Positions 764 to 19,620 of a stretch of DNA of 26,134 nucleotides are shown one piece after another. Origin of the DNA: a virus; the UHGV virus genome UHGV-1624389. One strand, given 5' to 3'. The notes under the pieces are model-generated. The model was not told where the DNA came from and searched no databases. It saw only the letters and a list, made by a program, of their open reading frames with translations. Numbering within the stretch: the stretch's first letter is position 1; each line of letters starts with the position of its first letter. The translations under genes were made by a program, and so were the position numbers.

Positions 764-2088
764 TGCACTGGCACCTTCAGAGGGATCACCGGCACAAAGC
801 CGGGATGCGTAATGGCATTACGCCGGATAATGTCCCCGTCACGCGCCGCGTTATCAAACCAGGTCGCCGCCAGCACCAGCGCGGGTAAAACCTCATCCGG
901 TGTGCGCTGAATGATCCGTGCAGACTGTTCAAGGCGCGTGTTGATATCCGCATTCAGATCTGCTTTCACCCGGCGCAGCGCCAGAAACAGCGCATCACTG
1001 GTTGTACGGGACAACTCCTTATCAATTGCCGTATTCAGTGTGTCGCGAATGTCGGTCAGTTCTTCCCACGTCGGCAGGTCAACCGTGTTTTTCACCGCCG
1101 GTGCATTGTTCAGTGCCGGATGCGTGACGGAAGGCCAGCAAGTGCTCTGCGCAGGTGTTGTTGCCTGCCCCACTGCGGCATTCTGCATCACCGCGGAAGT
1201 TGTTAGCGCAGGCAATCGGGTGACGGCATACGCCGCTTCGCTGATTGCGGTCGTACGAAGGGTGCTGGCAACCACGTTACGCTGCTGCGTCGCCGTGGCG
1301 GTGGTTTTACTGTCCGTTTTCCAGACGCCGCGCGGTTGCAGATCGCTGCCGAGGCTGACACCGGAAAGCGTTTTGATCATGGTGACCAGGTCGCTGGCGT
1401 TACCATAAAGGCGTTTCCCAGTACGCCACATTTTCTGCACCTGCTCAACGAAATTTTTGCCTGACGATGGCGGCGGCAGAAGTACCGAGATATCCCCCTG
1501 CAACAGCCTGGCGGCATCCGATACGGCAGAATCCACCACTTTCATCGCATCAGAAACATACCCCAGCATTATGCTGGCATTACCGATAACGTCGTTCTGC
1601 ACGAAATCCGCCACACCATCGATACTGAAACCGCTGAAGCTGTCACTGATGCAGTCATCCAGTGCAGAACAGGATGACATCAGCGTCTGCGCCGTCGCCG
1701 CACCTGATGTGGGGTAAGAGAGTTCTCCCGCTTCGACAAACTTCAGGTCAAAGCGGACAATACGCCCTTCACTCTTCGATGTGCTGACCCGAACCTCTCC
1801 GTCAACACAGACTTTCAGCTCACCGTAAGTCGGATGGACAAGCGTGCCGGGACCGGGTTTATTCAGCGCGTCAATCAGGCGATCGCGCTGGTCAAAGCAG
1901 TCATCTCCCACCACATAAGCCGTGATGGACGGGCGGAAAGTGATTTTCCCCAGGTCTTCGGTATAGGGCTTGTCGCGGTTCGGGTATTCATGTGTTTCCA
2001 CACGACGACCGGTTCCCGCACTTTCTTCTTCAACCTTAAACGGCACACCGCGAAATGACGCGTCCTGAAGTCTGTCTTTCCACGTCAT
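760..2088 (-). CDS. Phage DNA circulation protein (Mu N-like)
   Basis: 442-aa ORF starting MTWKDRLQDASFRGVPF, sitting directly downstream of the tape measure as in Mu-like tail modules. Family assignment from memory. Confidence 0.6.
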   Translation of the reverse strand: MTWKDRLQDASFRGVPFKVEEESAGTGRRVETHEYPNRDKPYTEDLGKITFRPSITAYVVGDDCFDQRDRLIDALNKPGPGTLVHPTYGELKVCVDGEVRVSTSKSEGRIVRFDLKFVEAGELSYPTSGAATAQTLMSSCSALDDCISDSFSGFSIDGVADFVQNDVIGNASIMLGYVSDAMKVVDSAVSDAARLLQGDISVLLPPPSSGKNFVEQVQKMWRTGKRLYGNASDLVTMIKTLSGVSLGSDLQPRGVWKTDSKTTATATQQRNVVASTLRTTAISEAAYAVTRLPALTTSAVMQNAAVGQATTPAQSTCWPSVTHPALNNAPAVKNTVDLPTWEELTDIRDTLNTAIDKELSRTTSDALFLALRRVKADLNADINTRLEQSARIIQRTPDEVLPALVLAATWFDNAARDGDIIRRNAITHPGFVPVIPLKVPVQ

Positions 2089-2100
2089 ATATACTCCGAA

Positions 2101-2131
2101 AATTAAAAAGCCACCTATTAGAAGGTGGCCT
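2101..2131 (-). terminator. Intrinsic terminator after the AT-rich tail-cluster insert
   Basis: Read on the minus strand: stem GCCACCT (rc of 2123-2129), 6-nt loop, AGGTGGC (rc of 2110-2116), then TTTTTAATT. It lies between the insert's stop (2150) and the N-like start (2088). Confidence 0.6.
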
Positions 2132-2149
2132 TGTAATGAATTTTATTAA

Positions 2150-2680
2150 TTAGCGAGTCAGAAACAACGAATCTTTATACTTTTGCTGTTGTTCATTTAA
2201 ATACTTAGCTGTTTCATCGCTGGCAAATGGAAATATTACCGTATTTTTAGGCATGGTAATTTCTTTTTTGTCCAGCGTCAGAGTAAACATAGGAACATAC
2301 TGAGCAGAGTAACGCACCGCAGAAACGAGCTCTAGTTTAGACTCTTCAATAACACTTAAATTATCCAGGCTAACTTTCTCTTCATCTTTTTTCTTTGACG
2401 CATTTAAAGTTTTTATTACTTTATTTAATTTCTCCTGAAAATCCTCCTTAAAGTTTTCAGGATTGCCGTCGACAACAAGAATCTGTTCACCCTGATTATC
2501 TGGAAAAATAATCTTTGCACTTATCAATTTATTTTCTTTATAAACATCACCAAGTTTTATGGCTCCTCCAGATAACTGAATAATATGTTCATCTTTAAAG
2601 GAGATGTTGCCAGAGATTATGAGAGATGAAAAAACAGCCGCTGCTCCAAGAATTACACTTGCTGTGATATAGCCTTTCAT
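2150..2680 (-). CDS. Hypothetical signal-anchored or secreted protein; AT-rich cargo gene inside the tail cluster
   Basis: 176-aa ORF with hydrophobic N-terminus MKGYITASVILGAAAVFSSLIISG and a Lys/Glu-rich remainder. Visibly AT-rich compared with flanking tail genes (not computed). Has its own AT-rich upstream spacer (2681-2771) and downstream terminator. Confidence 0.55.
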   Translation of the reverse strand: MKGYITASVILGAAAVFSSLIISGNISFKDEHIIQLSGGAIKLGDVYKENKLISAKIIFPDNQGEQILVVDGNPENFKEDFQEKLNKVIKTLNASKKKDEEKVSLDNLSVIEESKLELVSAVRYSAQYVPMFTLTLDKKEITMPKNTVIFPFASDETAKYLNEQQQKYKDSLFLTR

Positions 2681-2771
2681 TTTTCGCCTATTAACATTTT
2701 TCTAAATGTGCATTAATTCTATCACTCTATTTATGACTTACAACCAGCAATACCTGTGAGGGGAATCCTGG

Positions 2772-4604
2772 CTACCAAAATCGGGTATAGCCAACATCGT
2801 GATTTATATCAATGCCACTGGAGCGTGTTTCCGTAACCCGCATACCTGGTGGCATATTTATAAATGATACCTTGATCTCACCATCAACTTTTGGCGCAGA
2901 AGCTTTGTTAATCATGAAGGGATTCGGGCCTGTGGCATCGGAGGCGTTGTTTGACTGAGCCAGATCTACCGCCGGATAAGGTGTGTATCCCCGCGCCGGT
3001 ATTCCCGTCCCATAAGCATCATAAGCACCCGCGCCCCACTGCGCAGAGTTAATGGCATCGACCGTGTCACCGGAACTGTCGGTAAACCACTCAATAATTG
3101 GCTTCAGCTTATCCCACATATCCTGAAACCACTTAACAACCGGTCCCCAGTTTTTGATCACCATCCCCAGCGGCGACCAGGCAAAAACCTTCTTCAGAAG
3201 TTCCCAGCCAGCCTCAAAATAAGGACCAATGGTTTCCCAGAGCTTCTTGAAATAAGGTCCGACAACATCCCAGTTAGTGATAATTAATCCCGCAGCCAGA
3301 GCAATCGCCGTCGCAATCATGCCAATCGGCGTCATCGACATAATCCTGCTGACAATACTGATGGCACTGCCCACGCCCATCAATCCCAGTTTCAGAATCG
3401 CAAGACCGGCAGCAAGCCCGACGACGCCGCGAATAACCCGGGGATTTTCATCCGCAAACTTCGTGAATTTCTCCCCCAACTCCCCCAGCCACTGCGTGAT
3501 ATTTTTGGCGTCACCAGAAAATGCGCCGCCAATAGCTGCAAGACCGTTAGTTGCGGTCCCCGTCATTGCCTCCCACAGGTTGGACAGCGTACCAAGCTGA
3601 GCCTGAACACGTTTATTCAGGCTGGCCTGTTTATTCATCTTCTGCTGGATCTGATCGTAGCCATCCTTTCCTTTATCGATTAGTGCATTGACCACCTGAA
3701 GGGTTTCGGCATCATCACCAAATATTGCCTTAAGTACGCCTGTTCGCTTAACGTCGGTCAGTTTTCGCAGCTTTGCCAGTTGCCTGAACATGTTATCAAG
3801 ACCGCCAAAACTCCCTTTGCCGTCAGTAAAATCGAGCTGTACCCCGAGTTTCTGGCGGGCCATGATTTTATTGACGTCCCTGATTTTCTTAACGCTTAAT
3901 CCGGACTGGATAACTTTTCGCAGGGCGTTACCTGCCGACTCCCCGTTCATCCCCATCTGATCCATCATGACGCTGATGGGGGCAAGGCTCTGTGCAGCCT
4001 GAAGACCGTCCTTGTTCACCATCTTCAGAACAGAGCTGGTTTTAGTGAAGAAGGACAACATGTTGGTATCGTCAACGCCCAGATAAAACGCCTTCTGGAT
4101 AGTGTCGAACAGCCCCATCATGTCTTTTGACGCCGTTCCGGTAGCATCCTGCATCTTTGCGGCAAACTCGGCAGCCGCTTCCGGTGTTTTTTTCAGTTGT
4201 ACCGCAAGATAAGCTGTCGCTTTACCCACACCGCCAAGAATGTTTTCTGCCGGGATCCCCTGACGCACCAGCATCTGCATCATGTTCTGGAAATCAGCCG
4301 TTGTACCGGGTAGCTGATTACCCAGGCCAATAGCCAGTTTATTGATGTCCTGAAAGCTCTTTCCAACCTCGCCGTTCGCATCCATCATGGCGACTTTCAG
4401 CCCGGTGGCGGCGTTTTCCTGATCGGCATAAGATTTCAGGGAAAGCGTCAGACCCGCTGCCAGTCCGCCTCCAAGCGCCAGCCCACCCTGTGACGCTTCT
4501 TCCGCCTGGCGTTTAAATCCCCGGATTTTCTTTTGCATTTTCGACAGCGCGGGAGAAAGCCTGTCGACACCGGTGATCAACGCCTTAAGCTCAAATTCCG
4601 CCAT
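2772..4604 (-). CDS. Tail tape measure protein
   Basis: 610-aa ORF, Ala/Gly-rich with a hydrophobic block (LAAGLAILKLGLMGVGSAISIV), located after the tail assembly chaperone and before the N-like gene. Confidence 0.8.
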   Translation of the reverse strand: MAEFELKALITGVDRLSPALSKMQKKIRGFKRQAEEASQGGLALGGGLAAGLTLSLKSYADQENAATGLKVAMMDANGEVGKSFQDINKLAIGLGNQLPGTTADFQNMMQMLVRQGIPAENILGGVGKATAYLAVQLKKTPEAAAEFAAKMQDATGTASKDMMGLFDTIQKAFYLGVDDTNMLSFFTKTSSVLKMVNKDGLQAAQSLAPISVMMDQMGMNGESAGNALRKVIQSGLSVKKIRDVNKIMARQKLGVQLDFTDGKGSFGGLDNMFRQLAKLRKLTDVKRTGVLKAIFGDDAETLQVVNALIDKGKDGYDQIQQKMNKQASLNKRVQAQLGTLSNLWEAMTGTATNGLAAIGGAFSGDAKNITQWLGELGEKFTKFADENPRVIRGVVGLAAGLAILKLGLMGVGSAISIVSRIMSMTPIGMIATAIALAAGLIITNWDVVGPYFKKLWETIGPYFEAGWELLKKVFAWSPLGMVIKNWGPVVKWFQDMWDKLKPIIEWFTDSSGDTVDAINSAQWGAGAYDAYGTGIPARGYTPYPAVDLAQSNNASDATGPNPFMINKASAPKVDGEIKVSFINMPPGMRVTETRSSGIDINHDVGYTRFW

Positions 4605-14683: not shown

Positions 14684-15034
14684 TCACTTTAGCCGTTCAC
14701 GGGCCGTCTTCGCCTTATGACACGGCCAGCACAGACTCTGCAGATTATTGTCGGCCTCAGTGCCGCCATGTGCTTTAGGGATGATGTGGTCAACGGTTTT
14801 CGCCTCACGCACCACACCGGCACGCAGACATAACTGACACAGGCCCTTGTCACGCTTCAGTACACGTTCACGGATAGCATCCCATTTCGAACCGTAGCCG
14901 CGCTGATGACGGGATTGTCCTGGCTTGTATTGCTTCCAGCCTTCGCTTTTGTGGCTTTCGCAGTAGCCTGACGGGTCTGTGGTGGTATGGCGGCAGCCAC
15001 GAACACGGCAGGCTTTTGGGATTCGTGGGGGCAT
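14684..15034 (-). CDS. HNH endonuclease (terminase-associated)
   Basis: 116 aa with Cys pairs and a DHIIPKAHGG...N...CWPCH motif, placed just upstream of terS. Confidence 0.85.
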   Translation of the reverse strand: MPPRIPKACRVRGCRHTTTDPSGYCESHKSEGWKQYKPGQSRHQRGYGSKWDAIRERVLKRDKGLCQLCLRAGVVREAKTVDHIIPKAHGGTEADNNLQSLCWPCHKAKTARERLK

Positions 15035-16073: not shown

Positions 16074-16400
16074 TTACTCCTTAGAACCACCAAACTTATT
16101 ACCGATTACTCTCATTGCAGCCCCACGAATAGCATCGACCCCGATCAGCCCAACGCCACCACCAATGGCAACAGAAAGAGATTTAGGCCATCCGACATAC
16201 TCAAGAGCGGATGCAAAAGTCAGCGTCAGAGCACCACAGAGCAAAATCTCGAGCGTTTTTCGTTTCCAGCCACCACCACCGCCAAAATAGGCAATGCGCA
16301 AGCCAGCCATAACGATCGACATAATCACTGCGCCCAGCGGTGTGTCTCCACGCCACCAGCTCTGGAACAACTCCAGCCAGGTATTTGGGTTATGAGGCAT
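16074..16400 (-). CDS. S: Holin (lambda S family, three TM helices)
   Basis: 108 aa with three hydrophobic segments and a GAVIMSIVMAGLRIAYFGGG stretch that resembles lambda S (GAILAFAMAYLRGRYNGG) from memory. Sits immediately upstream of R. Confidence 0.8.
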   Translation of the reverse strand: MPHNPNTWLELFQSWWRGDTPLGAVIMSIVMAGLRIAYFGGGGGWKRKTLEILLCGALTLTFASALEYVGWPKSLSVAIGGGVGLIGVDAIRGAAMRVIGNKFGGSKE

Positions 16401-16618: not shown

Positions 16619-16647
16619 TTGCGTACGCGTTAGCGCTTTTGTATATT
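16619..16647 (+). promoter_or_regulatory. Candidate sigma-70 promoter for the plus-strand two-gene insert
   Basis: TTGCGT (16619-16624), 17-bp spacer, TATATT (16642-16647), about 35 bp upstream of the ATG at 16681. Confidence 0.35.
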
Positions 16648-16680
16648 CAGCTTAATCCTATGTATTTATGGAAAAATAAG

Positions 16681-17712
16681 ATGAGCAAGCGTGAAATCAA
16701 AACTAAAAAAATAATCTATAAAGAAGTCACAATGTCAGGTGTGTCAAAGACGCTCCAGTCGATGCTAATGGAGCTGCTCAAAAAACACACTAAAGCAGAT
16801 TCTCGCAAGGAAATGGTCAACCCAGGAGAGGAAGACTTATTCCGATTAATTAATAAACATGAAGAGTTCCAGGGAATGCTGTTTTGCCAGCTTGTTGCCT
16901 TCGAACCAGGCCATTCTCAACGCTATATACAGCTTAAAAATGATGCTGAATCTTATGAAATAAGATCCGTAACATCAGATGAACTTTCTAAAATGACTGT
17001 TGAAGAAGCTGAAGAAGCACGCACAGAGAGGGAACAGGTTGTGCGTGAGTTTATAGATTCAATTCTTTATTTCGGTGTATTTGGTAACAGCATCGTAGTA
17101 ATGCAATCCAGATCTCTTACAACAAGAGAACTTGAAACACATCTGAAATGGTTACTTGGCTCTTTAAGCAATTACTTAGGCGCAGAAAACATCTTAAAAG
17201 TTTCCGATAAGCCCAAAGAAGAGATCATTGAGGAAGTTCTAAAACGACCTGTAAAATCAGTTTCTATAGGTGCCCCTGTAACTGCCGTTAACGAATTTAG
17301 TCAAGGAAGCAAAAGCCCAGGCTGGGTTCCCGCAGGAACTGCCTCTGAACTCCTTAAAGCTATGTTAGCAGAGAAATGGGAAAGCTTCTTACGTAGTAGC
17401 AAGCTTGAAGATTGTCTTGATGACGCTAATCTTGAAGTAACGCTGAAAATCACATACAAGAGGAAAACTTCTGATTCAGGAGAAAGGATGTTAAGAAATC
17501 TTGTTGACGCTACCAGACACTACCCGGATGATGACGTCGTTGTTGAAATGGTTGGTGGGACGCGTTTAACTGGTAAAGAGATTCGTTTATGGAATACTGT
17601 TAAACTCACAACTTACAATAGCTTAATTGATGAACATGAACTATATGGCCAAATGCATGATTGGATGGTCGCTCTGATCAACAATGGAGAAATAGAAGAG
17701 ACCGATGAATAG
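16681..17712 (+). CDS. Insert gene A: soluble protein of unknown function, candidate sensor component
   Basis: Long ORF on the strand opposite to all flanking phage genes. The start is taken at MSKREIKTKK (16681) because the track's first Met at 16639 lies inside the putative promoter. About 343 aa, hydrophilic, no Walker A or nucleotidyltransferase GS...DxD motif seen. Visibly AT-rich. Confidence 0.7.
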   Translation: MSKREIKTKKIIYKEVTMSGVSKTLQSMLMELLKKHTKADSRKEMVNPGEEDLFRLINKHEEFQGMLFCQLVAFEPGHSQRYIQLKNDAESYEIRSVTSDELSKMTVEEAEEARTEREQVVREFIDSILYFGVFGNSIVVMQSRSLTTRELETHLKWLLGSLSNYLGAENILKVSDKPKEEIIEEVLKRPVKSVSIGAPVTAVNEFSQGSKSPGWVPAGTASELLKAMLAEKWESFLRSSKLEDCLDDANLEVTLKITYKRKTSDSGERMLRNLVDATRHYPDDDVVVEMVGGTRLTGKEIRLWNTVKLTTYNSLIDEHELYGQMHDWMVALINNGEIEETDE

Positions 17713-18244
17713 AGAGGCTGCTAAGTGCATATCCTACCAACAACCAAGTAGAGCATTCCACTTGGTTGTTGTAGTATTGCTTATGTTTACAGCCTGGTTT
17801 ATCGCCAATAAGTACATCATTTTAACATCCATTCCTTGGGGCGTATTAACTATCCTCATCTTACCAATTGCAAGTAGCGCAACCCTGTTTCATAAGTTAT
17901 CTGAAACCCAAAAAAACGTTGCTGAGGATTTATCTCGCAATGAACAAAGAAGGTTAACAAGGCTTATTAAAGAAAAAAGCCGGGCAACATTATTCATGCT
18001 TACGCTACAAATTTCGATAATAATTTTTGTGGCATTGATTAGCCTTGGCAATGAGTCCTCTTTTGTTCAACAGCACATTCATACTATAAGTAAATTCGTT
18101 GTTTGTGCTTTGGTTTTTTCACTATACTCATTAATCCCTGTTTTACTAGGAGTAAAGGAAGTTATTGATTTTGAAGGGTTAATAAAAACACGAAAAACAT
18201 TAAATAAGCGTAAAAAATCTGCATTATCCAAGCTTGGGAAGTAA
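17705..18244 (+). CDS. Insert gene B: four-TM small membrane protein, candidate effector
   Basis: 179 aa with four hydrophobic helices (HLVVVVLLMFTAWFIA, IPWGVLTILILPIASSATLF, LFMLTLQISIIIFVALISLG, FVVCALVFSLYSLIPVLLGV), a charged loop and a basic C-tail. Start overlaps gene A's stop (ATGAATAG), so the two are translationally coupled. Confidence 0.7.
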   Translation: MNREAAKCISYQQPSRAFHLVVVVLLMFTAWFIANKYIILTSIPWGVLTILILPIASSATLFHKLSETQKNVAEDLSRNEQRRLTRLIKEKSRATLFMLTLQISIIIFVALISLGNESSFVQQHIHTISKFVVCALVFSLYSLIPVLLGVKEVIDFEGLIKTRKTLNKRKKSALSKLGK

Positions 18245-18265: not shown

Positions 18266-18622
18266 TTAAACCATTCTCAGAACACCATCAATAAAACCTA
18301 AAGCAGTTTGCAATTCTTTTCTGATCGTACCATCTGAGCATTTCTGCTTCTTTGCAATTGTACGGAGCGAAACCCCAATAACAAAATGTGCGATTATCAG
18401 CTCATATTCTTCAGGCCTATATTTACGCAACCGAGCCACACAACTGTCTATCATAATGCCTTCGTCATCATCACACTGAATCCGGGACTTTTTGCCATGA
18501 GGTAAAAGCCCCTTGAAGCCAGCGGCTACCGGTTGCCAGTCCACTCCGCTATTGTCTGAAGCAGCCCAAGCTCCCCAACGATCCATCACTTCATACATAT
18601 CACGCATCAACTTTCTCCACAA
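18266..18622 (-). CDS. Q: Late-gene antiterminator Q (phage antitermination Q family)
   Basis: 118 aa: ...RWGAWAA...AAGFKGL...QCDDD...ARL.K...CSDG.I...LQ.A.G.I.G.L, a pattern matching remembered Q proteins of lambdoid/Stx-type phages. Sits upstream of the lysis cassette. Confidence 0.75.
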   Translation of the reverse strand: MWRKLMRDMYEVMDRWGAWAASDNSGVDWQPVAAGFKGLLPHGKKSRIQCDDDEGIMIDSCVARLRKYRPEEYELIIAHFVIGVSLRTIAKKQKCSDGTIRKELQTALGFIDGVLRMV

Positions 18623-18624
18623 AA

Positions 18625-19620
18625 TCAGGCCAGTACGCCTATTGCCAGCGCACGATCGATAAAACGAAATATCAGCTCCAACTGGGAGCCATACATCTCT
18701 TCAAATGCCACGGTATCCGCATGCAGCTCGTCGTGATGCTTTCTGCACAAAGGCAACACAAAGAGGTCATGCGCTTTTGTACCCATTCCCCCCTGACCGT
18801 GGCCTATCAGGTGGTGGGGATCATCAGCAAGCTTTCCACAACATGCACACGGCTGTGTCTTAACCCAGCGCGTGTACTTTTCATTAACCCAGCGGCGACG
18901 TTTTGGGCGTAACATAAAAGACTCCGGCGACTCCGGATCCACTTTCAGCGCCAGCACCTTTTTCGCTTTATCCTGGATAATGCTGGTGGCAGGAACCGAA
19001 GGAACAAGGTCACTCTCCCGGGTGACAGACGGCACAACAGGCTTCGGTAATCTCAGTGCCTTACGGGCTGCACTTTCCGGTAAGGCATCCGCCAGGTCAT
19101 TACGAACCAGCCACCAGCACAGTTCCGGCATTGTCACAACGTGACTGTCATCAAAACCGAGATCACGGCGCACAACAGACAACACCCAGCGGGCACAGTT
19201 ATCCGTTGCCATTGATTCCAGCCGTTCCGTGAACTGATCGCGCAGCTGGTTATCGCAGTGCCAGCACAGACGGATTGCGCCCGGAGCGTGTCGCATTGTG
19301 GTCATGTTCTCGCTGTGCCAGTCGGAATGAGGCCACTGGCAGCCTTTTTCACGAAGTAACCAGCTTTCAAGACATTCCACGCCACCAGCACGACGGATCA
19401 CAGCCTCATTGCGGAACACGGCCCGAACGGCAGGATCATCCGCCAGCGGTTGTGATGCCGCCGGAACGGCACCACTGGCGAAAGATGAATAACGTTCCGG
19501 CTCAGGCTCCAGCAGGACACGCCCCTGCATAAACAGGGGCATCAGCTCTGAACCTGGTCTGAACAATACGATCCCCATACGCGGGGCAATTTCAGGGGTC
19601 AGTAGTGCTCTCACGGTCAC
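18625..19620 (-). CDS. DUF968-type nin-region protein with C-terminal HNH-like Zn-finger motif
   Basis: 331 aa with C-terminal CACCGKLADDPHHLIGHGQGG...CRKHHDELH. The track's first residue is a GTG codon at 19620; an ATG 14 codons in (MGIVLF) is an alternative start. Confidence 0.65.
   Translation of the reverse strand: MTVRALLTPEIAPRMGIVLFRPGSELMPLFMQGRVLLEPEPERYSSFASGAVPAASQPLADDPAVRAVFRNEAVIRRAGGVECLESWLLREKGCQWPHSDWHSENMTTMRHAPGAIRLCWHCDNQLRDQFTERLESMATDNCARWVLSVVRRDLGFDDSHVVTMPELCWWLVRNDLADALPESAARKALRLPKPVVPSVTRESDLVPSVPATSIIQDKAKKVLALKVDPESPESFMLRPKRRRWVNEKYTRWVKTQPCACCGKLADDPHHLIGHGQGGMGTKAHDLFVLPLCRKHHDELHADTVAFEEMYGSQLELIFRFIDRALAIGVLA

Follow-up and report, generated by a model that had tools for sequence, protein, structure and literature searches.

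Several phages encode small envelope-tethered proteins that block receptor use or injection, namely Llp of T5, Cor of phi80, HK022 and N15, Ltp of TP-J34, SieA of P22 and Imm and Sp of T4, and the lambda proteins Bor and Lom raise the fitness of the host. Temperate phages also have cargo hot spots, such as those of P2 and P4 and the lambdoid Q-lysis position. The definition of phage morons is reportedly due to Juhala et al. in 2000. Morons are described as extra genes of distinct base composition, with their own promoter and terminator, that are active while the prophage is repressed (Cumby, Davidson and Maxwell 2012, PMC3594210). One of them encodes gp15 of HK97, a small inner-membrane protein that mediates superinfection exclusion and blocks DNA entry in a manner determined by the tail type of the phage trying to enter (PMC3594210). 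In SfIV, a moron is found at the Q-lysis position (PMC3851460).

Here, we describe a cassette inside the tail operon of UHGV virus genome UHGV-1624389 (26,134 nucleotides, analysed over its full length and referred to below as the window), an SfV-like E. coli prophage with a lambdoid head and regulation and a Mu-type contractile tail. This optional, AT-rich cassette fits precisely between the tape-measure stop codon and the ribosome-binding site of N (Table 1); it has the layout of a classic moron, and its slot accepts different cargos in different prophages. A preliminary description of this DNA had pointed to an AT-rich segment between the tape-measure and N-like genes and, indeed, we found a GC content of 34.1% for the cassette, against 52-56% for its flanks (51.6% for the tape-measure gene, 56.4% for the N-like gene) and 52.0% for the whole window. 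For the only ORF within the cassette, the GC3 was 30%, compared to 57-62% in the flanking genes. Homology to SfII and SfV restarts exactly at the tape-measure stop codon and, on the N side, stops just upstream of the ribosome-binding site. Neither direct or inverted repeats nor target-site duplications were found around the cassette, and there was thus no sign of transposition or site-specific insertion.

Table 1. Features of the cassette, its flanks and its remote homologue (positions in the window unless an accession is given)
Feature	Position	Strand	Basis or context
AT-rich cassette	2089-2771	(-)	between tape-measure stop codon and ribosome-binding site of Mu N-like gene
Cargo gene, phrog_5485 member, predicted TM anchor and putative periplasmic alpha/beta domain	2150..2680	(-)	ORF and translation, 176 aa
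Predicted single transmembrane helix / signal anchor, codons 2-23	2612..2677	(-)	AlphaFold2 helix at residues 2-23 and hydropathy
Tail tape-measure gene, 610 aa	2772..4604	(-)	upstream flank; PF10145 E = 1.6e-26; phrog_28/17727
Mu N-like DNA-circularisation / baseplate-hub gene, 442 aa	760..2088	(-)	downstream flank; PF07157 (DNA_circ_N) E = 6.6e-34; phrog_184 E = 1.3e-145
GGAG ribosome-binding site of N-like gene	2097-2094	(-)	downstream boundary of cassette
Predicted sigma-70 promoter: -35 TTGTAA (2743-2738), 16-nt spacer, extended -10 TGaTAGAAT (2724-2716)	2716..2743	(-)	consensus scan
Weak Shine-Dalgarno AGGCG, 4 nt upstream of ATG	2685..2689	(-)	read from sequence
Intrinsic terminator: stem-loop 2132-2107, T-run 2109-2100	2100..2132	(-)	terminator scan and RNA fold
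Q-like antiterminator gene, same prophage	18266..18622	(-)	phrog_79 E = 2.6e-47
Lipoprotein A0A2H4P829 of Pseudomonas phage ventosus	MG018930, 51995-52429		early/middle region of virulent 97-kb phage; Foldseek

The availability of close relatives allowed us to compare the tape-measure/N junction. Five isolated phages (SfV, SfI, SfII, SfIV and vB_EcoM-689R6) have flanking tail genes with 90-93% DNA identity to those of the window, and their slot contains no gene and measures only ~25-50 bp. Among 5,426 complete E. coli genomes, the flanks of the SfV-like tail module were matched in 1,091 (about one in five), a contiguous empty junction was present in 531 and the cargo gene in 174, the carriers of the gene being human, poultry, cattle, pig and environmental isolates. 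E. coli LST200A is identical in sequence to the window over positions 1900-3000. Furthermore, in other prophages, including SKA5, the same slot is filled by at least four further single genes, all AT-rich and unrelated. They encode a signal-peptide protein, a lipoprotein, a transmembrane-anchored OB-fold protein and a bPH_1 protein, three of the four being envelope-targeted, and none of these alternative cargos matched PADLOC defence models. The gene for the OB-fold protein lies on the strand opposite to the late operon, and the slot is therefore not confined to late-transcribed genes. The empty slots and the unrelated occupants confirm the earlier proposal that the gene is inserted cargo and not a core tail gene. 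As expected of a moron, it separates two genes that are direct neighbours in related, collinear sequences (the five phages and the 531 E. coli genomes), and it has a distinct base composition and its own terminator, with the caveat that a hairpin is found in the empty slot too. A tblastn search of 50,697 phage records with the cargo protein yielded no match at E <= 1e-5, i.e. the protein is absent from the isolated phages in that collection, and in the literature searched we found no description of either the tape-measure-to-N slot of SfV-like phages or the 176-aa protein.

The cargo gene has long resided in the slot, where, judging from its homologues, it has diverged to 29-60% identity across Enterobacterales genera without ameliorating. 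In prophages of Leclercia and Edwardsiella and in metagenomic prophages, homologues down to 29% identity directly precede the N gene, and the profile search with the family alignment (A1) in the genome collection returned a single locus, in Edwardsiella. We distinguished 13 homologue contexts (24-60% identity), eight of which are in the tape-measure-to-N slot and one of which immediately precedes N but lacks a tape-measure gene, and all seven homologues with at least 31% identity in intact prophages occupy the slot. A further one of the 13 is a decayed prophage of Lelliottia amnigena, located downstream of icd, where only the last 41 tape-measure codons and the intact cassette are left. More distant members (~20-30% identity) occur outside prophage tail modules, beside genes for gluconate dehydrogenase, thioredoxin and, on one 1.3-kb contig only, the T6SS-immunity protein Rap1a, suggesting that the domain may have a more general periplasmic role. 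The cargo protein is conserved and under purifying selection: dN/dS is 0.078 between Leclercia-type alleles, and the E. coli alleles differ by 13 synonymous and 11 nonsynonymous variants, the latter mostly conservative.

Conservation at this position across Mu-like tail modules, with matching base composition, would according to the preliminary description point to a structural or assembly gene. The position is indeed kept in a subset of Mu-type modules, but the composition does not match: every homologous tail-slot locus is AT-rich, with 32-42% GC compared to 56-57% for the N gene. Thus, the AT-rich segment is an insert as proposed, but its AT-richness is no mark of recency, given that the family diverged within the slot. 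AT-richness has lasted despite a long stay in hosts of 50-55% GC, indicating that low GC in a moron is an unreliable mark of recent acquisition.

Independent expression signals had also been proposed for the cassette, and we do find a terminator and a predicted promoter within it, and a Q-like antiterminator gene upstream. The intrinsic terminator claimed for the coding strand consists of a 10-bp stem at 2132-2107, then UUUUUAAUUUU, and its RNA folds with -17 kcal/mol (z = -6.1; 0 of 200 shuffles fold as well); Rfam gave only sub-threshold, leader-like matches for it. A terminator inside the tail operon is therefore real but not special to the insert, as the empty slot of SfII and SfV also bears a hairpin just upstream of N, with -14.8 kcal/mol. 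Among same-strand cassette variants, the hairpin at this position differs in sequence. The predicted promoter, a site that was absent from the earlier list of features, has 9 of 12 consensus matches plus the TG motif and lies ~35 nt upstream of the ATG; it is a consensus match without enrichment, as scanning the 2-kb region returned 2 sites compared to 2.9 expected from shuffled sequence. Comparable promoter-like sites, likewise consensus matches, are present in homologous cassettes (TTGTCA-16-TATAAT in L094, TGtTATAAT in L015), and the combination of a terminator of its own and a promoter-like site recurs in several diverged cassette lineages.

The product is predicted to be a membrane-anchored periplasmic protein. 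In line with the hydrophobic N-terminus and the Lys/Glu-rich body noted before, the 19-residue Kyte-Doolittle maximum of 2.09 falls on residues 5-23, the sole hydrophobic segment, residues 3-28 form an uncharged run of 26 residues, and Lys and Glu make up 23% of the body. A hydrophobic N-terminus is shared by all 64 aligned family members. The 176-aa protein contains no Cys and hence no lipobox, ruling out that it is a lipoprotein. An AlphaFold2 model with a pLDDT of 90.5 consists of the N-terminal helix, which could be either a stable anchor or a cleaved signal peptide, and an alpha/beta domain of ~150 aa; an earlier model that drew on 14 close homologues reached a pLDDT of only 59.6 and was discarded along with its meaningless Foldseek matches in the PDB.

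Searches for known families returned little. The protein matches phrog_5485 (E = 4e-108), a PHROGs family of unknown function, and the PHROGs hmmscan at E up to 1 added only phrog_34391, also of unknown function, and chance-level matches. Pfam and NCBIfam gave zero matches, as did the PADLOC-DB v2 defence models at E up to 10, so that in PHROGs, PADLOC, Pfam and NCBIfam no known exclusion or defence family was matched. A Pfam scan of all 64 aligned members gave scattered chance matches only, a sequence-profile search of the PDB was empty and no solved structure matched the alpha/beta domain. None of the functions proposed earlier (exclusion, envelope modification or virulence) was assigned by a database or structural match.

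The only real fold match was a lipoprotein of the Pseudomonas phage ventosus, with a Foldseek E of 1.7e-6, a probability of 1.0 and TM-scores of 0.56/0.66. The family profile also aligned to it collinearly with 16.6 bits, and this alignment covers the GxVxxE hairpin motif as well as the C-terminal half. The two proteins have the same predicted alpha/beta domain and are predicted to be membrane-tethered, but they share only 14% sequence identity, and the anchor of the ventosus protein is a lipobox (LLTGC), not a transmembrane helix. Its gene, likewise uncharacterised, belongs to the early/middle region of a virulent phage and not to a tail operon. The presence of the same tethered domain in a phage without a lysogenic state favours a phage-versus-phage role over a role in virulence.

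Our leading, tentative reading is that this is a self-contained moron cassette expressed in the lysogen and that its product is most likely a superinfection-exclusion factor acting at the envelope. Host sigma-70 RNA polymerase would transcribe the cargo gene from its own predicted promoter in the lysogen, when the late operon is silent, and the terminator would prevent this transcription from reaching the baseplate genes. In the lytic cycle, Q-modified polymerase, to judge from lambdoid biology, would read through the terminator. The protein would insert into the inner membrane N-in/C-out, placing the domain in the periplasm, where it could hinder genome delivery by incoming phages at the periplasm/inner-membrane step; plausible targets are the tape-measure or hub proteins that related contractile tails eject. 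HK97 gp15 serves as our working analogy because it is a single-pass membrane moron product encoded beside a tape-measure gene. Exclusion proteins of this type stop the genome of a superinfecting phage from entering but permit adsorption, and the incoming tail or tape-measure protein sets their specificity. Counting for exclusion are the optional slot, the predicted expression signals, the transmembrane helix, the envelope-targeted alternative cargos, the purifying selection, the retention in Lelliottia and the linkage to N and thereby to the injection machinery; counting against it are the missing match to known families, the unenriched promoter and the distant members outside tail modules. 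More generally, we infer that protection of the lysogen at the envelope is the most likely function, probably against other phages. A bolder version of exclusion, which as a whole we consider doubtful, would make the tape-measure-to-N junction an undescribed hypervariable hot spot largely for envelope proteins and the 176-aa family a new class of membrane-tethered, periplasmic exclusion proteins that recognise ejected contractile-tail tape-measure or hub proteins, with the linkage keeping their specificity matched to ‘self-like’ tails, the closest competitors.

Moron architecture and envelope location fit equally well with a lysogenic-conversion factor that serves the bacterium and is unconnected with phages, i.e. 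a periplasmic protein raising niche fitness in the manner of lambda Bor and Lom. Possible benefits would be tolerance to stress, serum or antimicrobials, or immunity to toxins that act in the periplasm, for instance T6SS effectors, colicins and tailocins. Such a role is supported by the variety of isolates carrying the gene, by the cassette being kept alone in the decayed Lelliottia prophage and by the distant homologues in ordinary chromosomal contexts, one of them beside the Rap1a gene, although this last adjacency comes from the one short contig. However, the strictly virulent ventosus could not gain from lysogenic conversion and nonetheless encodes the lipoprotein-anchored remote homologue, and a host-niche function leaves the long-term linkage to the tape-measure and N genes, down to 29% identity, unexplained. 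We therefore regard a conversion factor as rather unlikely.

The same virulent homologue, together with the conserved position beside N and the weak promoter evidence, would suit a non-essential accessory of the lytic cycle that is transcribed mainly with the late operon. Such a protein could keep progeny virions from injecting into cells that are lysing or already infected, much like T5 Llp or T4 Imm and Sp, or modulate envelope events at lysis or tail function. As the cargo gene lies inside the late operon on the same strand, Q-antiterminated transcription would give it high late expression. However, a terminator and a promoter-like site would be superfluous for a purely late gene and yet are found in several diverged lineages, the gene outlives the late operon in the prophage remnant, its base composition is strongly and persistently unlike that of late genes, and the OB-fold cargo occupies the slot on the opposite strand, making this explanation improbable. 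That the gene is a structural or assembly part of the Mu-type tail, for example an accessory of the tail tip or the tape measure, which only looks foreign, is very improbable and, although the same tape-measure/hub position is kept across genera, effectively refuted because the slot is empty in functional, plaque-forming phages (the five isolates); in addition, SKA5 and other prophages bear unrelated genes there, a transmembrane anchor and periplasmic location misfit cytoplasmic tail assembly and the GC3 departs from that of the flanks.

With 174 carriers among the genomes that have SfV-like tail modules, the cargo is a frequent accessory envelope protein in E. coli, both commensal and pathogenic. 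In near-isogenic tail modules, the slot is either empty or contains the cargo gene or one of the four other cargos, and nature thus provides an allelic series. If the protein does exclude phages, this would have a bearing on the host range of therapeutic phages in E. coli and Shigella.

Compared to known systems, the cassette resembles phage morons in being an extra gene of distinct composition inside a late structural operon, with a predicted promoter and a terminator, but it differs in not being recent, having persisted and diverged in its slot across Enterobacterales genera while still AT-rich. Membership in the Tab/Tai tail-assembly blockers was set aside by description: the account of Tab available to us presents a small protein acting on the tape-measure protein of the invading phage during tail assembly, not at the envelope. 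With Llp, Cor, Ltp, SieA, Imm and Sp, the cargo shares being a small phage-encoded protein with a predicted tether to the envelope, and here transmembrane- and lipoprotein-anchored versions of one domain are known, the latter from ventosus; it differs from them in having no homology in PHROGs and Pfam scans, and neither lipobox nor Cys. Like the P2, P4 and Q-lysis hot spots, the slot is a fixed intergenic site with alternative, unrelated AT-rich accessory genes in one phage group, but its cargos are single small genes, mostly for envelope proteins, without a PADLOC match.

The closest parallel is HK97 gp15. No sequence relation to gp15 (gp15/YebO-like) was detected by PHROGs hmmscan, Pfam or NCBIfam, the cargo gene lies downstream of the tape-measure gene whereas that of gp15 lies upstream, and the tail is of the Mu-type contractile kind here but a siphovirus tail in HK97. 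Our protein has a folded, putative periplasmic domain of ~150 aa, whereas gp15 is described only as a small inner-membrane protein (PMC3594210). Nevertheless, both are encoded by single-gene morons of the tail operon that adjoin the tape-measure gene, and both products are predicted to be single-pass inner-membrane proteins; if the exclusion of phages holds true, the cargo would be a periplasmic, contractile-tail-directed counterpart to HK97 gp15.

The interval 2089-2771 fits exactly between the Mu N-like start codon and the tape-measure stop codon. Its GC content is 34.1%, compared with 51.6% in the tape-measure gene, 56.4% in the N-like gene and 52.0% in the whole window. Third-codon-position GC is 30% in the cargo ORF against 57% and 62% in the two flanking genes. 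These values bear out the preliminary description of an AT-rich segment inside the tail genes, and its account of the gene content was equally accurate. The encoded protein has an N-terminal hydrophobic segment, the only one present (residues 5-23, Kyte-Doolittle maximum 2.09; residues 3-28 uncharged), and a Lys/Glu-rich body (Lys+Glu = 23% of the remainder) without cysteines, and the coding strand carries an intrinsic terminator, whose hairpin has a folding energy of -17 kcal/mol (z = -6.1 relative to shuffled sequences). The promoter-like site is a consensus match only, of a kind not enriched in the region; both expression signals, promoter and terminator, are predicted.

Coordinates of the features discussed (window unless a locus is named)
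Feature	Position	Strand	Remarks
Mu N-like gene	760-2088	minus	start codon is one edge of the interval 2089-2771
N ribosome-binding site	2097-2094		GGAG
Terminator	2132-2107	minus	10-bp GC-rich stem-loop, 17 bases past the cargo stop codon, then UUUUUAAUUUU
Cargo ORF	2150-2680	minus	176 aa
Promoter-like site	2743-2716	minus	TTGTAA-16-TGaTAGAAT, ~35 nt upstream of the ATG
Replaced segment, read against empty-slot phages	~2099-2771
Tape-measure gene	2772-4604	minus	stop codon is the other edge of the interval
HNH-endonuclease-family gene	14684-15034	minus	just upstream of the terminase region
Holin gene	16074-16400
Two-gene cassette	16639-18244	plus	opposite strand; phrog_3482 (357 aa) and phrog_16807 (179 aa), families without an assigned function
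Q-like antiterminator gene	18266-18622	minus	same strand as the cargo; upstream of the lysis genes (holin, endolysin, spanin) and of the structural operon
HNH-endonuclease-family gene	18625-19620	minus	331 aa, phrog_96; adjoins the Q gene
Empty junction, SfII	L001 1699-1737		AT-rich spacer
Empty junction, SfV	L003 1700-1749		AT-rich spacer
Lelliottia amnigena cassette	L009 7806-8568		with the last 41 tape-measure codons
Ventosus lipoprotein	L105 1995-2429 (MG018930 51995-52429)		144 aa, lipobox LLTGC; annotated only as hypothetical protein
Distant member with Rap1a neighbour	L108 89-1061		1.3-kb metagenomic contig

When a 1.1-kb junction query was matched against isolated phages, only its two flanks were found (91-93% identity) in the Shigella and E. 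coli phages SfI, SfII, SfV and vB_EcoM-689R6, over 481 bp versus 1,101 bp in the window. Homology to these phages ends at the N ribosome-binding site and restarts at the tape-measure stop codon; those two points lie ~50 bp apart in SfII and SfV, and in SfIV the tape-measure and N genes are 24 bp apart. The slot between the two genes is thus empty in all of these phages, supporting the insertion that had been proposed for this junction. No flanking repeats or target-site duplication were found around the cassette. In a census of 5,426 complete E. coli genomes, 1,091 had any flank match, 174 carried the window's insert at at least 95% identity and 531 a contiguous SfII-type empty junction. The cassette is optional, compositionally distinct, precisely bounded and genetically linked to the genes for tape-measure and hub. 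The ‘empty’ junction of SfII and SfV retains an AT-rich spacer of ~50 bp, with a terminator-like hairpin (-14.8 kcal/mol; annotated in SfII) directly before the N ribosome-binding site, which may be what a lost cassette left behind or may work as an attenuator in the late operon. Since the empty slot has a hairpin too, having a terminator ahead of N characterises the junction and not the cassette alone.

All 524 members of the close protein cluster are hypothetical proteins of E. coli, and wherever the 80 recovered IMG/VR prophage contigs include the flanks of the gene, these are tape-measure and N. The same slot holds homologues in Leclercia (L005-L008 and L100, 52-53% identity to the window protein), Edwardsiella anguillarum (L015, 41%), metagenomes (L094, 59%; L103, 55%; L096, 31%) and a genome contig (L106, 37%), and a further homologue (L107, 29%) lies directly upstream of DNA_circ_N. 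In all these loci GC is 32-42% for the cargo gene and 56-57% for N, and most have a GC-rich hairpin and T-run ahead of N. Conservation at this position with matching composition had been named as the mark of a structural or assembly gene; the position is indeed conserved in part, but the composition never matches. dN/dS is 0.078 for a pair of Leclercia-type alleles, and among E. coli alleles there are 13 synonymous versus 11 nonsynonymous variants, the latter mostly conservative. The cargo protein diverges faster than its flanks, with 53-60% identity where N has 69-80%. The gene is long established in the slot and under constraint. Between the members of that Leclercia-type pair, the Leclercia locus L005 and the metagenomic locus L103, dS is 1.07 for the cargo and 0.29 for the adjacent N gene and the tape-measure proteins are only 41% identical; tape-measure identity swings from ~40% to ~80% independently of the cargo. 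Because of this dS contrast and these jumps, the region is seen to be mosaic, with the cassette recombining as a unit, and the L005-L103 comparison indicates recombination breakpoints at both cassette edges.

In PHROGs, the full-length matches of the protein are to families of unknown function (phrog_5485, E = 4e-108); Pfam, NCBIfam and PADLOC, a collection of defence-protein models, gave no match. An exhaustive profile search yielded 77 cluster representatives, nearly all of them 165-200 aa long and sharing the N-terminal hydrophobic segment; none of the 64 aligned family members has a Pfam domain. Residues G39, L43, G44, E49, N93, Y124 and L134 are conserved family-wide, and a G-x-V-x-L-G-x-V-Y-x-E motif lies on the first beta-hairpin. 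From the 64-sequence alignment, AlphaFold2 (pLDDT 90.5, pTM 0.75) predicted a transmembrane helix (2-23) followed by four strands (32-72) and a helix (74-93), then a Lys/Glu-rich loop, two long strands (114-143) and, at the C-terminus, another helix (149-171). The sole significant match in a viral structure library was a lipoprotein from ventosus, a virulent Pseudomonas phage (E = 1.7e-6, TM-score 0.56/0.66). The family profile aligns to this lipoprotein collinearly, hairpin motif included (16.6 bits), and the lipoprotein is conserved (32-70% identity) in three further virulent phages of Pseudomonas. This match would place the domain on the periplasmic side, tethered to the membrane by two different anchors, an arrangement predicted to span temperate and virulent phages. 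The cargo is a predicted single-pass membrane protein with an uncharacterised, otherwise structurally unmatched periplasmic domain.

Evenly spaced sampling of the remaining E. coli records revealed four other, unrelated single-gene occupants of the slot (L010-L014 and L002), every one AT-rich: a same-strand signal-peptide protein (164-170 aa, 31-32% GC), present in the isolated phage SKA5 too; a 225-aa lipoprotein with an LLGGC lipobox (42% GC); a 148-aa tRNA_anti-like OB-fold protein with an N-terminal transmembrane segment, encoded on the opposite strand (37% GC; 5'-truncated in L011); and a 125-aa bPH_1 PH-domain protein with no evident signal peptide or transmembrane segment (38% GC). Every same-strand cassette closes with a distinct hairpin and T-run directly before the N ribosome-binding site, and none of the four cargos matched PADLOC defence models. 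The tape-measure-to-N junction is a cargo hot spot, apparently undescribed. Elsewhere in the window, a two-gene cassette between the Q-like antiterminator and holin genes occupies the classic lambdoid Q-lysis cargo position; neither of its proteins matched PADLOC. The window also holds two HNH-endonuclease-family genes, and cos packaging modules of the HK97-like kind typically have such a gene just upstream of the terminase region, as is the case for one of the two.

In Lelliottia amnigena, a 763-bp stretch just downstream of icd, a known prophage integration site, is 74% identical to a Leclercia prophage and contains the intact cassette with gene, terminator and predicted promoter. No other phage genes were found within 8 kb, and the locus is a prophage remnant in which the cargo gene alone is retained. 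We tentatively regard superinfection exclusion at the DNA-delivery step as the most likely activity, on account of this retention, the envelope bias of the other slot cargos, the homologue in a virulent phage and the analogy with HK97 gp15, the product of a tail-operon moron adjoining the tape-measure gene that causes a tail-dependent entry block (PMC3594210). In a lysogen, the cargo would be transcribed from its own predicted promoter, with the terminator shielding the baseplate genes, and the protein would sit N-in/C-out in the inner membrane and act in the periplasm. Homologues at about 20-30% identity lie beside gluconate dehydrogenase, thioredoxin, HTH regulator or Rap1a T6SS-immunity genes; one (24% identity) adjoins a divergently oriented Rap1a gene (PF18602), which hints that the domain may serve periplasmic immunity outside phages. 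That the cargo is itself a host-fitness or toxin-immunity envelope factor seems unlikely. During lytic growth, Q-modified polymerase would pass the cassette terminator, and an Llp/Imm-type accessory expressed late in the lytic cycle is an alternative to which we give little weight. A structural tail gene is effectively refuted, as the slot is empty in viable phages, which rules out an essential structural role.

We found no literature on the tape-measure-to-N slot or the 176-aa protein, which belongs to none of the known exclusion or defence families, by sequence or by fold. For superinfection exclusion, the likeness to HK97 gp15 is one of architecture and genomic logic only. In SfIV, the Q-lysis position has been described as a moron site (PMC3851460). 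At the sequence level, the cassette in the tape-measure-to-N slot is likewise a moron, an extra phage gene with its own predicted terminator and a promoter-like site.
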